Assembly: GCA_020057115.1 (NCBI GenBank)
Contig: JAGVGJ010000002.1
Coordinates: 857 to 64,856 of the forward strand
Direction of reading: 5' to 3'
Origin: Candidatus Omnitrophota bacterium
GTDB taxonomy: Bacteria > Omnitrophota > Gorgyraeia > 2-01-FULL-45-10
Length of the DNA: 64,000 nucleotides
In this document: positions 2,718 to 64,000 of the stretch, one piece after another
Numbering within the stretch: position 1 is the first letter of the stretch
How the letters are laid out: each line of letters opens with the position of its first letter
Notes under the pieces: generated by a model
Seen by the model: the letters and a program-made list of their open reading frames with translations, nothing else
Database searches by the model: none
Told to the model about the DNA's origin: nothing
Made by a program: the position numbers and the translations under genes

Positions 2718-3485
2718 GTGCGCTCTATAGAAAAAGAACATTCGATATTGATCGATACGCCGAATGGGGATGAGGCGCTAATAGGCTTTACAAAACCGAC
2801 CATAAGCGGCGATCCGTCCGAAGACGCGCCGAAAGCTCTCTCTTTAACGGCAGGCGCTTTCGGCACAAGCTTCATGAAGCAGGTCCACGGCGCTGATATA
2901 AAGCTAGTGGACCGCCCCGGACAATATACATGCGATGGCATATTTACGGCAGCGGAAAAACTTGCGCTCTTCGTAAAAACGGCTGACTGCCTCCCTCTAT
3001 TATTTTACAGTAAGGAGAAGGGCGTCACGGGCGCAGTTCACATGGGCTGGCGCTCCGCGAAGGACGGGATACTCGAGAATATCCCGTTCGGCCTGTCGTC
3101 ATTCGAGGTGATCGCAGGCGTCGGGATGCGAGACTGCTGCTATCAGGTCGGCAGTGAATTCCTCGATCACGGACGGTTCAACGGCTTCGTAGGCATGCGG
3201 GAAGGCGTGTATTATTTCGACCCTGTCGGATTCGCCCGAACGGAATTAATCAAAAAAGGGTTATCTGAAAAAATGTTTTTCGATTATAATATATGCAGCC
3301 ATTGTTCGGCAGATGGCTACTTTTCGCACAGGAAGAATGCGACCAATAACAGGACATTATCATTTGTCATGAAACTAGGGGGCATGGGTCCAGGGTCCGG
3401 AAAAAAGGAGAATGAAGATGAAAAAGATCCTCGGAGCAGCAGCTGTAGTTTTCTCGGTCTTATTTATTTTTGGCCTTGCGGATAA
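2718..3485 (+). CDS. pgeF: PgeF/YfiH family protein (purine nucleoside phosphorylase / peptidoglycan editing factor, DUF152).
   Basis: HMGWRS and CSHCSADGYFSHRKN motifs typical of the YfiH/PgeF fold. The 3' end overlaps the next gene by about 70 nt through a GGGTCCAGGGTCC heptad repeat, so the true stop may be earlier. Confidence 0.6.
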   Translation: MRSIEKEHSILIDTPNGDEALIGFTKPTISGDPSEDAPKALSLTAGAFGTSFMKQVHGADIKLVDRPGQYTCDGIFTAAEKLALFVKTADCLPLLFYSKEKGVTGAVHMGWRSAKDGILENIPFGLSSFEVIAGVGMRDCCYQVGSEFLDHGRFNGFVGMREGVYYFDPVGFARTELIKKGLSEKMFFDYNICSHCSADGYFSHRKNATNNRTLSFVMKLGGMGPGSGKKENEDEKDPRSSSCSFLGLIYFWPCG

Positions 3486-17533: not shown

Positions 17534-17726
17534 CGAATATTAAAAAACGCTATAAGATGTTATTTTACGAACCGGACAGGATATAGTTAGCAGGTATTTT
17601 GGTGTTCAATATTTTGCATAACTAACGCAGCAGCCATTCAGCCTTTCTCTAAAAAAGAGAAGAGCTTTGGGTGGCTATTTTTATTTTAGGCGTAAATCAT
17701 ATCCGAAAGGAGGTGTAGAAAGAAAA

Positions 17727-17930
17727 ATGGCTCAAGGTTCAGTAAAGTGGTTCAATGATAAGAAGGGCTTTGGCTTCATCATATCCGAGGATGGCAAGGA
17801 TGTATTTGTTCATCACACGGCTATTGAAGGCGAAGGTTATAAAAGCCTGAAAGAAGGGGAGAAGGTTCAGTTCGAGATAGTCCAGGGTCCGAAGGGGGAC
17901 CAGGCAACGAAAGTTGTTAAGCTGTCGTAA
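17727..17930 (+). CDS. cspA: Cold-shock protein (CspA family), with a long structured 5' leader of about 190 nt.
   Basis: [21 protein letters not shown]1 motif. AGGAGG RBS. The internal Met of the listed ORF at 17667 was chosen as start. Confidence 0.85.
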
Positions 17931-18061
17931 GAATTGTTTACCGTTATTACCTCTTTAGTAAAGATAGCGACTTTTCATGCATCCGGTAAGTATTTTCATT
18001 GGATTTGGTAAAAGAAAAGGGCGTGAAGGGGATTTATTTCCCAAAAACGGCATAAATACAT

Positions 18062-27418: not shown

Positions 27419-27492
27419 ACACAGCGTAGTGTAGTGAAAAGAACAGAGGCGTTCAATTTGGTTTTATGACTAAATTGGGCGCCTCTTTTTTT
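27419..27492 (+). promoter_or_regulatory. ANTAR-type dual hexaloop hairpin element overlapping an intrinsic terminator (leader of amt-2).
   Basis: Hairpin 1 is ACAC-AGCGTA-GTGT and hairpin 2 is GAAC-AGAGGC-GTTC; both loops have A at position 1 and G at position 4. The terminator is AGAGGCG...CGCCTC followed by T7, and its 5' arm overlaps hairpin 2. Confidence 0.55.
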
Positions 27493-31639: not shown

Positions 31640-31730
31640 AAGCACAGGGTCGTGCTTAGATAGAGACAAAAGAACAGAGGCGTTCAAAAAGGTCGAATCG
31701 TACCGGCCTGTTTGAACGCCTCATTTTTAT
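31640..31730 (+). promoter_or_regulatory. ANTAR-type dual hexaloop hairpins plus an intrinsic terminator in the leader of the GATase-gltBD operon.
   Basis: Hairpin 1 is AGCAC-AGGGTC-GTGCT. A 15-nt linker follows. Hairpin 2 is GAAC-AGAGGC-GTTC. The terminator is GAGGCGTTCAAA...TTTGAACGCCTC followed by a U-tract. Confidence 0.55.
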
Positions 31731-49233: not shown

Positions 49234-49266
49234 CATTCATTCAATAAATATGCCAAAAAAGATAGG

Positions 49267-49294
49267 TTGACAAATAATATTACCCTAATATAAT
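49267..49294 (+). promoter_or_regulatory. Sigma70-type promoter (TTGACA-N16-TATAAT) for the atp operon.
   Basis: Read from the sequence. Confidence 0.5.
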
Positions 49295-49308
49295 ATTAAT
49301 TAACACCA

Positions 49309-49584
49309 ATGGCGATGTCTTCTGGCGACGAATGCTGGAGGGCATTTTTTATGCAAAAAAAGAAGGTCTACAAGTGGATCAAGATCGGTGGGCTATTATC
49401 ATTCCTGCCGTTCGTAATGGCTGCCGGACCTCTCGGGGGATACCTGATGGGCGAGCTCCTGCAGAAAAAGCTGGGACTTCCTCCGATAACGATGGCGATA
49501 TGCATAATACTTGGATTCCTCGGAAGCGCCGTCGAAACTGTTAAAGTGATCAAGATGGCGCTGCGCGCAGAGGAGAAAGACTAG
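49309..49584 (+). CDS. atpZ: AtpZ/AtpI-family small membrane protein encoded upstream of the ATP synthase genes; probable start at the internal Met near 49351.
   Basis: Two TM helices with a GPLGGYLMG motif. Position matches atpZ. Confidence 0.4.
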   Translation: MAMSSGDECWRAFFMQKKKVYKWIKIGGLLSFLPFVMAAGPLGGYLMGELLQKKLGLPPITMAICIILGFLGSAVETVKVIKMALRAEEKD

Positions 49585-49586
49585 AG

Positions 49587-49865
49587 ATGGGCAATCCGAA
49601 ACTTATGTGGTTGAGCGGTTTTCTTATCGGCGCCGGCTGGAGCGCCGTAAATTTCCTTCTCATATTATCCATTCTTAAGATATCTATGCTCGAAAAACCG
49701 AAGACAAAGCTGGGGGCTATACTTCTTTTGAAATTTCCGGTGCTTTATCTCGTCGGATTCCTGATACTGAATTCCGGCATCTTCCCGATATCAAGTATAC
49801 TTGCAGGCCTGACATCAACACTATTACTTGTCGGAGCTATAAAATTATGGCCGAAGCGCACGTAG
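49587..49865 (+). CDS. atpI: ATP synthase protein I-like membrane protein.
   Basis: 92-aa, two-TM protein immediately upstream of atpB. Confidence 0.4.
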   Translation: MGNPKLMWLSGFLIGAGWSAVNFLLILSILKISMLEKPKTKLGAILLLKFPVLYLVGFLILNSGIFPISSILAGLTSTLLLVGAIKLWPKRT

Positions 49866-56468: not shown

Positions 56469-57734
56469 ATGGAGCTCCTTGTTTGCGATAGCAAGAATCG
56501 CATATACCCAATAAAACATCTTGAGCCGGCCGGTATGGAAGCCGGCCATTTTTTTCGGCTAGATACAAAAGACCTCATCAAATTACCCCGCGGAAGCCAG
56601 CTATTCACCCTTCCTGATAGGCGACCTGTAGGGTATGATCCTTCAAGCAAAAGCTTTGTCGCGCCTGAAGAAAAACTTTTTGCCGTAGGAGCATTCGTCT
56701 CGCCCGGCCACACGACAACGCATTCAGCTGCTTATATGGAACTGGACAAGCCGAAGCTATTGCCGCTATTCTCGTACGCAGCCGTTGCCATACATAAAGG
56801 CAAATATTATACAGCCGCTATAAAGGTAGACGACGATACCCGCCATGACTGCACCTTGATAGATATAGCTAAGGTTAAAATTGGCGTAAAGGCCCTTCGC
56901 AAGAAATTCCCGAAGAACAGGCTTGTCCGCCACCTTGAAGATTGCGCTCTTAAATACGGATGCGCCGGAGCACAGAACTTTTTTTTAGGCAAGCATGAAG
57001 GGCCGCTGCCATCATCACCGTATTGTAATGCGGTCTGTCTCGGATGCATATCTTACCAGCCGCGCAAGCTATGTTCCGAGACCCAGCCTAGGATAAAATT
57101 CATCCCAGAACCTCAGGAGATAGCCGAGATCGCATTATTCCATATGGATAGGGTGAAGGACACCATTGTGAGCTTCGGCCAGGGTTGCGACGGCGAGCCT
57201 CTTATCGTGGGTGATGTGCTGGTGGAAGCGGTAAAGCTGATCCGGGCAAAAAGATCCGATAATATGATCAATGTGAACACCAATGGCTCGAGGCCTGATA
57301 TTGTTTCTCGGCTTTTCGACGCAGGTCTTGATTCCATTCGGGTCAGCATGAACAGCGCAAGGATCGAATACTACTCAAGATATTATAAGCCCATAGGTTA
57401 TGCATTCCACGATGTCCTTGCCTCTATAAAGATAGCAAAGAAGAAGGGCGGGTTCGTTTCGCTGAATTACCTTACAATGCCCGGATTCACTGATACCGAG
57501 CCTGAGCTAGCGGCAGTCTCGAAACTAATAGAGAAATATCACATCGACATGATCCAGTGGCGCAACTTAAACTATGACCCGATGGAATATTTTAAAGAGA
57601 TAGATATCGCAGTCGACCGCTCCGATATCCTTGGCGTACGCAGCATGATGCAGTCCCTGGAAAAACGCTTCCCAAAGCTGATCTTCGGCTATTTCAATCC
57701 AAGTCGTGGAAAAATAAGGGCCGTTGTCGATTAA
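56469..57734 (+). CDS. Radical SAM enzyme with an N-terminal domain of about 190 aa of unknown function.
   Basis: CNAVCLGC CxxxCxxC motif at about residue 195, followed by a TIM-barrel-like radical SAM core. Confidence 0.5.
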   Translation: MELLVCDSKNRIYPIKHLEPAGMEAGHFFRLDTKDLIKLPRGSQLFTLPDRRPVGYDPSSKSFVAPEEKLFAVGAFVSPGHTTTHSAAYMELDKPKLLPLFSYAAVAIHKGKYYTAAIKVDDDTRHDCTLIDIAKVKIGVKALRKKFPKNRLVRHLEDCALKYGCAGAQNFFLGKHEGPLPSSPYCNAVCLGCISYQPRKLCSETQPRIKFIPEPQEIAEIALFHMDRVKDTIVSFGQGCDGEPLIVGDVLVEAVKLIRAKRSDNMINVNTNGSRPDIVSRLFDAGLDSIRVSMNSARIEYYSRYYKPIGYAFHDVLASIKIAKKKGGFVSLNYLTMPGFTDTEPELAAVSKLIEKYHIDMIQWRNLNYDPMEYFKEIDIAVDRSDILGVRSMMQSLEKRFPKLIFGYFNPSRGKIRAVVD

Positions 57735-57962
57735 GTCTCTCACGAGATAAGGAGATGTCTTCCTCAAGCCACTCCACGCCAAGCATCTTCTCCTCATTCG
57801 AATATTCCTTTTATAGAGGCACTGTCCCTCTCGGGGCGGGCCAGTGCCCTTGGCAAGGCGAATATCCTCACTCGTCGTTCACCAACCATGTCTCCCTCTG
57901 GGGTAGACATGGCTACAAGTCAATATCAATAGCCACTCTCGCCTTCGACGAGTGAGATTTTC

Positions 57963-58166
57963 CTCATATTGTAGGCGCGGACCGTTAGGGTGGGTTTGGA
58001 ACGGCCTTGTAAAATTTCGATCCCTTAAGCCGATACAGCAAGGCCGAACAAACCTGTCAATAGTTCTTCCTTATAGTCCGGGTTGGTCGGCCATCGAAAT
58101 TTTACGGAGCGAGCGAGGATGGCTAATCCGAGCGAGCGTCCGCGACAGACCCACCCTAACGGTCCG
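57963..58166. repeat. Palindromic MITE-like or structured-RNA element of about 200 nt with 18-bp perfect terminal inverted repeats (CGGACCGTTAGGGTGGGT ... ACCCACCCTAACGGTCCG) and nested internal inverted repeats.
   Basis: Inner IR GTAAAATTTCGAT / ATCGAAATTTTAC and GGCCGAACAAACC / GGTTGGTCGGCC. A direct repeat CGAGCGAGCG x2 lies in the 3' arm. Additional flanking IRs pair 57872 with 57946. Confidence 0.5.
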
Positions 58167-58286
58167 ACAGCCTCATGGAGAGGAATATTTGAATGAGGAT
58201 CAGGCATCCTTGCAACGAACTATTGACATCATCCCTAAAAAGCGGTATACTTGTTATGAACATATGTTCATAACATAGGAGCCATC

Positions 58287-58592
58287 TTGAGGCCGAAAAA
58301 GACTAGATCCATAAGCTGCATGCCGGGAGAACGGTGCTTTAAGCCGCTCTGCAAACCATTAAATAAAGTAGAGTCGGTATTTCTAACCCTGGACGAATTT
58401 GAAGCATTGAGGCTTGCTGATCTTGAAGAGATGAAGCAGGTAGATGCGGCAAAAATGCTTAATATCTCAAGGCCGACATTCTCGCGCATCGTAGGGTCAG
58501 CGCGTAAAAAGATAGCGGACGGCCTGGTCAACATCAAGGCCATAAGGATCGAGGGCGGCTGCTGCAAGATCTCAAGGAGAGTAAGGCGATGA
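58287..58592 (+). CDS. DUF134/UPF0251 family putative DNA-binding protein, TTG start.
   Basis: N-terminal Cys-rich motif (CMPGERCFKP), LTLDEFEALRLADLEEM..ISRPTFSRI..ARKKIADGLVNIKAIRIEGG. Confidence 0.55.
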   Translation: MRPKKTRSISCMPGERCFKPLCKPLNKVESVFLTLDEFEALRLADLEEMKQVDAAKMLNISRPTFSRIVGSARKKIADGLVNIKAIRIEGGCCKISRRVRR

Positions 58593-59761
58593 AAGAATGG
58601 AAGAAATTTCTTTATGTTGTCGCGATATTCTTAGGTTGTTTCTATCTGCCTGTCGAAAACCTGCGGTTCTCCAATGCTATCTTTGAGGCGCTTGCCCTCG
58701 TAAAGTGGTATGCCCGGGAGCATGTATTATTATGCCTTGTCCCGGCATTTTTTATTGCCGGAGCCATATCCGTATTTGTAAGCCAGGCGTCGATCATAAA
58801 ATATTTCGGCGCCAAGGCGAACAAAGTCCTTTCTTACAGTGTTGCCTCCATATCCGGAACCATCCTGGCGGTCTGTTCCTGCACGGTTTTGCCTTTATTC
58901 TCCGGTATATATAAAAGAGGTGCCGGGCTTGGGCCTGCGATAGCTTTCCTTTATTCAGGACCTGCTATCAATGTCCTTGCCATCATCCTTACCGCGCGCA
59001 TCCTTGGCTGGCAGCTTGGACTGGCAAGGGCGATAGGCGCGATTGTATTTAGCGTAGTGATAGGGCTCGCCATGCACCTCATATTCTTAAAAGGGGAGAG
59101 GGAGCGTCATGTTAATGGCAACTTCGACATAGAAGATGTAAAAGAAGCGCGCCCTCTGGGTAAGACCGCCGCCTACTTCACATCCCTTGTCGCGATACTT
59201 GTATTTGCGAACTGGGGCAAGCCACTCGAAGGCGATCACGGTCTATGGAGCTTGATATATGCGCTTAAATGGTGGATCACAGGTTTTTCCTTCGCCGGCC
59301 TCATCATCATGCTGTTCAAATGGTTCAAAAAAGATGAATTAAAAGAGTGGGCCGCGGTTTCATGGGGATTTGCCTTACAGATACTGCCGCTTTTACTCGG
59401 CGGCGTACTCGTCTCCGGATTCCTGCTAGGCAGGGTCGGGCATGAAGGGATAATACCTTCAAGGTTCATTACGATGCTTGTCGGCGGAAACTCATTATGG
59501 GCGAACTTTTTCTCGTCGATCGTGGCGGCATTCATGTATTTTGCAACACTGACCGAAGTACCCATACTTCAAGGGCTGATGAACTCAGGTATGGGTAAAG
59601 GGCCTGCCTTAGCGCTTCTTCTTGCGGGGCCTGCGTTAAGCCTTCCAAGCATGCTGGTCCTCCGCAGTATCATTGGGACAAAAAAAACTGTCGTCTATGT
59701 AAGCCTGGTAATCATCATGGCTACGATCAGCGGGATGTTCTTTGGGTGGATCGTTAAATAA
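58589..59761 (+). CDS. DUF318 (YraQ-like) permease.
   Basis: CSCTVLPLF...GAGLGPAIAFLYSGPAINV is the DUF318 hallmark. About 10 TM helices. Confidence 0.6.
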   Translation: MKEWKKFLYVVAIFLGCFYLPVENLRFSNAIFEALALVKWYAREHVLLCLVPAFFIAGAISVFVSQASIIKYFGAKANKVLSYSVASISGTILAVCSCTVLPLFSGIYKRGAGLGPAIAFLYSGPAINVLAIILTARILGWQLGLARAIGAIVFSVVIGLAMHLIFLKGERERHVNGNFDIEDVKEARPLGKTAAYFTSLVAILVFANWGKPLEGDHGLWSLIYALKWWITGFSFAGLIIMLFKWFKKDELKEWAAVSWGFALQILPLLLGGVLVSGFLLGRVGHEGIIPSRFITMLVGGNSLWANFFSSIVAAFMYFATLTEVPILQGLMNSGMGKGPALALLLAGPALSLPSMLVLRSIIGTKKTVVYVSLVIIMATISGMFFGWIVK

Positions 59762-63209: not shown

Positions 63210-63874
63210 TATTCTCATGGTCGAGCGGCAAGGATAGCGCGATGGCGCTATATGAGGCTAAGCAGAGCGGAAAGTATGCGATCGATTGCCTGCTTACGAC
63301 TGTCACGGAAGGATATGACAGAATAAGCATGCACGGCGTAAGACGAGAACTCCTTGAGGCGCAAGTAGAGTCGATAGGCCTGCCTCTTGAAAAGATATTC
63401 ATTTCCAAAAAGAGCTCAAGCGATGAATACGAGTCGAAGATGCGGGAATTCCTTGAAAGAAAGATCTCCGAAGGCGTGAAGGCAGTAGCATTCGGAGACA
63501 TATTCCTGGAGGACCTAAAAAAGTATCGCGAAGACAAACTCGCTCAGGTTAATATGAAGGCTCTATTCCCGATATGGAAAAGGGATACGACAGAGCTTGC
63601 AGGGAAGTTCATCGAGCTCGGCTTCAAGACGATAATAACTTGCGTGGATACAAAAGTCCTGGATAAGAGCTTTGCCGGCCGCCTCTATGATGAGTCCTTT
63701 CTAAAGGACCTTCCTAAGAATATAGATCCGTGCGGCGAAAATGGCGAATTCCATTCATTCTGTTTCAACGGCCAGATATTCGGCACGCCTATCAAGTTCA
63801 CAATAGGCGATTCGGTATTGCGCGACAATAGATTCCAATATCAGGACTTGATAGCACCCTCTCGGGATGGGTAA
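63197..63874 (+). CDS. PP-loop ATP pyrophosphatase of the MJ0570/Dph6-like (ATP_bind_4) family.
   Basis: SGKDS PP-loop at the N-terminus. Conserved [13 protein letters not shown]-terminal block. Confidence 0.65.
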
Positions 63875-63987
63875 GGTGTCTTTCCGCGAACATTCCATTC
63901 CCAGAGGGAATGTCATTCGGAAGGTCGCGATTTTCGTTGAAAAATCGCGACCTTCGATGTCGCTCCAAGACACCTTACCCATCCCTC
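63867..63987. repeat. 22-bp perfect inverted repeat (CTCGGGATGGGTAAGGTGTCTT / AAGACACCTTACCCATCCCTCGG) enclosing two internal hairpins.
   Basis: Inner hairpins CATTCCC/GGGAATG and AAGGTCGCGATTTTC/GAAAAATCGCGACCTT. The element reaches the window edge. Confidence 0.5.
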
Positions 63988-64000
63988 GGGGGCCCCAGTG

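Follow-up and report, generated by a model that had tools for sequence, protein, structure and literature searches.

A 552-nt spacer (57735–58286) separates a radical-SAM gene from a DUF134 gene in the genome of an uncultured Omnitrophota bacterium, and as this spacer is both non-coding and very strongly self-complementary, it raises the question of what kind of sequence lies between the two genes. The window analysed is the whole stretch of 64,000 nt (64 kb) in which the spacer was found, and all of its genes lie on the + strand. Downstream, the gene for the DUF134 helix-turn-helix protein (TTG start at 58287) is followed by genes for an ArsP-type permease, a SAM methyltransferase, a small thioredoxin, a 144-aa protein of unknown function, a DsbD-like protein and an Acr3-type transporter. 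A first-pass annotation had described 57780–58290 as one densely structured region; nested inverted repeats are indeed dense there, but the last ~75 nt (58217–58290) are a conserved promoter and operator and lie outside the structured element. The spacer is a composite of the native DUF134 control region (58217–58286) and an unrelated element of 409 nt (57791–58199). The upstream gene, the element and its parts are as follows.

56469–57734, + strand: radical-SAM gene, the final gene of an ATP synthase, PCC-domain protein and radical-SAM run; stop codon at 57732–57734
57735–57790, + strand: stretch of 56 nt leading from the radical-SAM stop codon to the element; GC 0.52, without a terminator
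57791–58199, + strand: the whole orphan foldback element; 409 nt, non-coding, GC 0.52, with a closing stem and three internal hairpins
57791–57820, + strand: 5′ arm of the outer closing stem (TIR-like repeat I1); 30 nt, 80 % complementary to 58170–58199
57822–57859, + strand: hairpin HpA; small, folding either as GGCACTG...CAGTGCC or as CTGTCCC/GGGGCGG
57867–57956, + strand: hairpin HpB; an 11-bp perfect stem (57867–57877 / 57946–57956) around an 11-bp hairpin (57886–57912)
57962–57975, + strand: minor hairpin, small
57978–58166, + strand: hairpin HpC; 189 nt
58055–58066, + strand: TGTCAATAGTTC, part of the HpC apical loop; 12 nt forming a perfect inverted repeat with 58217–58228
58170–58199, + strand: 3′ arm of the outer closing stem (I1), pairing with 57791–57820 and enclosing the entire structure

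When folded as RNA, the + strand of 57735–58290 reached −222.4 kcal/mol (z = −10.97), a value equalled by none of 100 shuffled sequences, and the − strand of the spacer gave a z-score of −6.46. For the 409-nt element alone the corresponding values were −187.9 kcal/mol (z = −9.25) on the + strand and −177.4 kcal/mol (z = −7.68) on the − strand, with z = −7.93 when it was folded as DNA; the + strand is more stable by ~10 kcal/mol because the non-Watson–Crick positions are G·U pairs on this strand. Furthermore, the spacer contains five inverted repeats that are perfect over 11 nt or more, compared with an expected 0.19, and none of 300 shuffles matched this number. It ranks as the most structured intergenic region of the window, where the other structured spacers are ordinary hairpin and U-tract terminators. 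The GC content of the element is 0.52, compared with 0.26–0.47 in the other intergenic regions and 0.39 in the adjacent promoter. The structure is real and statistically extreme, far beyond what chance would produce.

The element has no coding capacity, in agreement with the first-pass annotation, as codon scores, Pfam and protein searches were all negative. Its open frames had codon-usage log-odds of −0.18 to −0.01, compared with 0.24 ± 0.07 (minimum 0.079) for the real genes, and none of them contained a Pfam domain. In a frame of 66 aa, an AGGAG directly abuts the ATG with zero spacer, whilst a frame of 108 aa found no homologue among 1.84 billion representative proteins beyond one spurious match, to a repeat protein (P0121). 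A concatenation of five frames returned zero matches from 5.8 billion proteins. Scans for tRNA and tmRNA genes and for tandem repeats were likewise empty.

The element begins 57 nt past the stop codon of the radical-SAM gene, the last gene before the next promoter. As folded, its outer stem consists of 22 + 5 bp (27 bp), and because its three non-Watson–Crick positions are G·U on the + strand, the 22 contiguous pairs exist on that strand only. HpC, previously reported as a 200-nt palindromic element, is itself built of several nested repeats: an outer pair (57978–57998 / 58146–58166) of 21 nt that is 95 % complementary and has an 18-nt perfect core; a 13-nt perfect pair, GTAAAATTTCGAT / ATCGAAATTTTAC, at 58009–58021 / 58093–58105; and an imperfect pair, GGCCGAACAAACC / GGTTGGTCGGCC, at 58042–58054 / 58081–58092, which in the fold forms an imperfect 13-bp stem (58042–58056 / 58079–58092) capped by an apical loop of 24 nt. 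The internal loops are strongly unequal, with 10 nt facing 40 nt and 20 nt facing none; the one-sided insert of 40 nt lies at 58106–58145, and a direct repeat, GAGCGAGCG, occurs at 58107 and 58131. All of the repeats listed in the first-pass annotation are present, although two left coordinates were displaced, 57872 by 5 nt (actual position 57867) and 57966 by 12 nt (actual position 57978). Missing from that list were the outer 30-nt pair, the 12-nt pair 58055–58066 / 58217–58228 and the palindrome at 58252–58275.

Two further details of the fold are of note. Across the two long stems there are four non-Watson–Crick positions, and all four are G·U on the + strand; this is a weak indication of RNA-level constraint, with chance odds of about 1 in 8. 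Moreover, the 12 nt matched in perfect inverted orientation by the HpC loop (58217–58228) consist of the −35 box of the downstream promoter and the 6 nt 5′ of this box. By our own estimate, ~0.01 separated inverted matches of 12 nt would be expected per 552 nt; the match may be due to chance, be the trace of a template switch or reflect pairing between loop and tail.

The 3′ part of the spacer is of a different nature, being the control region of the downstream operon, with the following features.

58217–58286, + strand: native control region of the DUF134 operon; TTGACA-17-TATACT, a 24-bp palindrome and a ribosome-binding site, followed by the TTG start
58223–58251, + strand: sigma-70-type promoter; TTGACA, 17 nt, TATACT, with 11 of 12 consensus matches
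58252–58275, no strand assigned: presumed operator, a 24-bp perfect palindrome with the halves TGTTATGAACAT and ATGTTCATAACA, directly 3′ of the promoter
58279–58289, + strand: ribosome-binding site AGGAG (58279–58283) and TTG start codon (at 58287) of the DUF134 gene

A permease-based search of species genomes yielded 80 Omnitrophota loci (L008–L087; permease 79–87 % identical), from which 100 nt upstream of the DUF134 start were aligned. The layout of −35 box, −10 box, palindrome, ribosome-binding site and start codon is conserved in ~60 Omnitrophota species: the promoter is found in 63 of 67 related loci and the palindrome in 62, with both present in 59, and in 36 loci the palindrome core lies 4 nt past the −10 box, as it does in the window. 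The palindromes fall into three half-site classes (TGAACA, ATGCAT and TGCACA types) that track the clade of the DUF134 protein. Identity to the DUF134 protein of the window is at least 67 % for the class TTATGAACA..TGTTCATAA, 56–62 % for ATGCATA..TATGCAT and mostly 46–56 % for TTATGCACATATGTGCATAA. As the half-site co-varies with the protein clade, there is good indirect evidence, drawn from sequence comparison, that DUF134 acts as a repressor of its own operon and has this palindrome as its binding site. We found no functional study of the DUF134 helix-turn-helix family in the open-access literature.

The ArsP-type permease itself (58589–59761) shares 79–87 % identity across 80 Omnitrophota species, and the surroundings of the conserved DUF134-to-Acr3 block differ from genome to genome. 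For the radical-SAM protein (56469–57734), the closest non-self relative is only 70 % identical, and its homologues assign the organism to Candidatus Omnitrophota.

Comparison with these relatives places the element at a junction. The spacer upstream of DUF134 has a median length of 136 nt in the relatives, compared with 552 nt here, or 143 nt once the element is subtracted. In none of the relatives does a radical-SAM or PCC gene lie upstream of DUF134, although the DUF134-to-Acr3 block is conserved, and in relatives another gene directly follows the radical-SAM gene; no remnant of that gene was detected in the spacer (best tblastn E = 0.4). The element therefore lies at a synteny breakpoint. 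The long spacers of relatives were also considered as possible analogues of the element, and were discarded as only one of them, in locus L037, is structured and this is a tRNA gene: a tRNA-like sequence at 3217–3295 of that locus, with a cloverleaf in the fold, lies just 5′ of the DUF134 promoter.

With regard to transcription, the promoter at 58223–58251 is the only promoter-like site in the spacer, none being present upstream of the element on either strand. Nor is there a terminator-like site in 57500–58500, where HpB with the AUUUUCC behind it comes closest, or a hairpin with T-tract in the 500 nt upstream of the promoter. Classical terminators are present at other operon ends in the window, and by strict criteria a canonical terminator immediately precedes the DUF134 promoter in 12 of 64 relatives. 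As no terminator separates the radical-SAM stop codon from the element, the latter should be transcribed as a 3′ UTR.

Searches for copies and relatives of the element returned nothing beyond chance. By blastn and nhmmer, 57735–58215 had no match in the 80 related loci, where only 58218–58290 finds matches, and a covariance model of HpC found nothing in 608 kb of related loci (one locus per genome). There is no second copy within the 64-kb window (blastn, nhmmer) and none in plasmids or phages (blastn), and three scans of viral contigs with patterns from the element gave seed-length matches or nothing. The genome and metagenome collections were scanned with the inner-repeat 18-mer CGGACCGTTAGGGTGGGT, the perfect core of the HpC arms, rather than with the whole element: it had 0 matches in 185,579 species genomes and 4 seed-length, chance-like matches in JGI metagenomes. 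Rfam, searched at its gathering threshold across the whole window, held no family for the element, and at E ≤ 10 across 57000–59000 gave chance-level matches only (microRNA and snoRNA among them). Only TC (2 bp) directly flanks both outer ends as a potential target-site duplication; a GCATC(C)TT repeat is also present but is offset and does not abut the element on its right, and the inner units have no flanking duplication. Scans of the window and of the 19 neighbouring ORFs found no transposase, recombinase or reverse transcriptase near the element, and nothing relevant on inverted repeats in Omnitrophota was found in the literature. As far as the available data reach, the element is therefore a single copy without conservation in related genomes, an outcome that the first-pass annotation had itself named, together with the lack of a transcript, as counting against its interpretation.

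We consider the element most probably (at a probability of about one half) to be an orphan, lineage-specific, non-coding foldback insertion at a synteny breakpoint, consisting of selfish or accidental palindromic DNA. It would be either a non-autonomous element of MITE or REP type, possibly nested, or the product of reverse-complement template switching in place, with a 27-bp stem of TIR-like arms closing it around three unrelated hairpins. We infer both this mobile or template-switch origin and its co-transcription with the upstream genes: the ATP-synthase/PCC/radical-SAM transcript would passively include the element as its 3′ UTR, where the stable fold of the element would block 3′-exonucleases and insulate the upstream transcript from the regulated DUF134 promoter. 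Such a stabiliser or insulator role is suggested purely by analogy with REP, ERIC and Correia elements.

The first-pass annotation had likened the central unit to a MITE, and in several respects the whole element does resemble bacterial MITEs such as Correia/NEMIS, RUP and Nezha. It is small (409 nt, within the MITE size limit of ~600 bp), non-coding and intergenic; it has a strong foldback and terminal inverted repeats (30 nt at 80 %, with the inner 21 nt at 95 %); and it would share a transcript with an adjacent gene. In contrast to MITEs, no second copy was found, at most the 2-bp TC could pass for a target-site duplication and no cognate insertion sequence is known, whilst the interior holds three unrelated hairpins instead of a single foldback and its GC content is not below the genome average. 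As copy number, target-site duplication and parent element lend this reading no support, we have not filed the element as a MITE. Similarities to REP/BIME and ERIC sequences are its position at the 3′ end of an operon, where stable hairpins could protect the upstream mRNA, and its make-up as a mosaic of several palindromic units. REP units are 20–40 nt long, share a consensus and number hundreds per genome; in contrast, no unit is common to the modules of the element or to a second structured element of the window, at 63857–63992.

This second element was observed close to the end of the window (64000) and is a closed multi-hairpin structure of 136 nt (−85 kcal/mol, z = −10), closed by a stem of 24 bp around two hairpins, of which one has a perfect stem of 15 bp. 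Its 5′ arm reaches into the end of a diphthamide-synthase-like gene, covering the final five codons and the stop codon, and between this element and the 409-nt one there is no significant similarity. A hairpin tip, CCCTCT(C/G)GGG, that the two appeared to share was picked out post hoc and rejected, given that the alignments were not significant (20/300 and 36/300) and that the motif is absent from related loci. Elsewhere in the window, the exact 15-mer AACAGAGGCGTTCAA occurs at 27442–27456, 31673–31687 and 31712–31726 (three matches, compared with 0.12 expected), in the stems of two intrinsic terminators, which suggests a small repeated terminator module. Two further long spacers, 17534–18061 (528 nt) and 49234–49846 (613 nt), contain no gene of at least 100 aa and have no Rfam match, and their folding is ordinary (z = −2.9 and +0.1, respectively).

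A serious alternative, although in our judgement a distinctly less probable one than the foldback insertion, is that the element never moved and that its nested repeats were built in place, by inverted duplication or a series of reverse-complement template switches at the junction of a rearrangement, and are neutral. The position of the element exactly on the synteny breakpoint would follow naturally, as would the lack of copies elsewhere and of a target-site duplication, and the internal modules are mutually unrelated in sequence. The apical loop of HpC is, moreover, a perfect 12-nt inverted copy of the native −35 region, of which the right-hand copy is the one conserved in relatives. In this, the element recalls template-switching hairpins, which are lineage-specific perfect stems beside unrelated loops, the arm at 58217–58228 being demonstrably native sequence with an inverted copy nearby. 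However, template-switching events during replication, as described, mostly produce single short stems, whereas at least six nested stems make up the 409 nt here, and several successive events within one stretch of 400 nt would be required. Furthermore, the 21-, 13- and 11-nt arms have no source copy outside the element in the 64-kb window, and its GC content is above that of native spacers.

On a par with local origin in its likelihood, and likewise doubtful, is a new structured ncRNA. It would comprise ~410 nt, or the 189 nt of HpC alone as a 6S-like rod, and would be derived from the + strand of the upstream transcript, released by RNase III and act in trans. The better folding of the + strand and the confinement of the 22 contiguous outer pairs to it both speak in favour of such an RNA; in addition, the near-perfect stems are divided by unequal, unrelated loops, the multi-branch shape with a long closing stem resembles that of processed RNAs, and the GC content is at coding level. 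Taken with the G·U bias, the near-perfect stems and unequal loops also fit selection on a + strand RNA, although this bias amounts to four positions only. Set against these observations, the element has neither a promoter before it nor a terminator after it, no Rfam family matched even at E ≤ 10, and there are zero homologues in the 80 related loci and the collections searched; old functional RNAs, besides, seldom contain perfect helices like those seen here (21, 13 and 11 bp). The resemblance to 6S RNA (RF00013 and relatives), as raised by the first-pass annotation, extends to HpC being a largely double-stranded rod of 189 nt with asymmetric internal loops, and goes no further: HpC has no covariance-model match, no promoter of its own and no conservation in the phylum, is nested in a larger closed structure, and is closed by a 21-bp perfect stem where 6S RNA has a long bulged one. 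As such, a conserved functional RNA is not the reading that we favour. A more elaborate version, improbable in our view, would have the element cut from the ATP-synthase/radical-SAM 3′ UTR at the 27-bp stem and the loop at 58055–58066 pair with the −35 region, as RNA or in an R-loop, making it a new large RNA of a deep Omnitrophota lineage; were this pairing real, it would link expression of an arsenic-type detoxification operon to that of the upstream operon.

Still less credible is an inverton, in which the 30-, 21- or 12-nt inverted repeats would serve a site-specific recombinase for turning the enclosed segment around. The repeats are of typical length, surround segments of 150–350 nt beside a promoter and, in the case of the 12-nt pair, overlap the −35 box; however, no promoter-like site lies within any flippable segment, a flip between the 12-nt repeats keeps the −35 and −10 boxes intact and the neighbourhood has no recombinase gene. 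An artefact of assembly or amplification, i.e. a chimeric inverted join, is conceivable for a contig from a metagenome assembly, as amplification chimeras can create palindromes, but we regard it as very improbable, given that the repeats are several, nested, imperfect and asymmetric instead of one long exact inverted duplication and that the flanks are intact, the radical-SAM gene being full-length and the conserved promoter complete. The equally implausible proposal of a cis-acting leader, or riboswitch-like 5′ UTR, of the DUF134-permease-methyltransferase operon draws on the position of the element directly upstream of this operon and on the loop complementary to 12 nt at its promoter, but is refuted by the structured element lying upstream of the transcription start: the promoter is 3′ of the element and the true leader is only ~30 nt long and occupied by the operator, whilst ~60 related species keep promoter and operator without the element (the promoter in 63 of 67), and neither an upstream promoter nor an Rfam cis-regulatory family match exists.

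Three further candidates were tried and rejected. A retron-like reading, suggested by the succession of closing stem, short hairpins and long hairpin, was dropped as there is no reverse transcriptase among the 19 neighbouring ORFs, and an attC-like one as the motifs GTTAGGG and CCCTAAC do not follow one another in the required order. Tandem sub-units with TCCTCA at their start, noted post hoc, gave module alignments no better than those of shuffles (141/500, 223/500 and 400/500).

In itself, the element matters little, being a palindromic orphan inserted into the genome of a single uncultured member of the Omnitrophota; if it turned out to be an active MITE or a processed RNA, this phylum would gain its first described element of the kind. 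The more useful outcome lies in separating it from the native control region, which yields a candidate operator for DUF134. This operator, TTATGAACA-n-TGTTCATAA, together with its two variant classes, is kept in ~60 species and is a candidate for the first operator motif of the DUF134 family.
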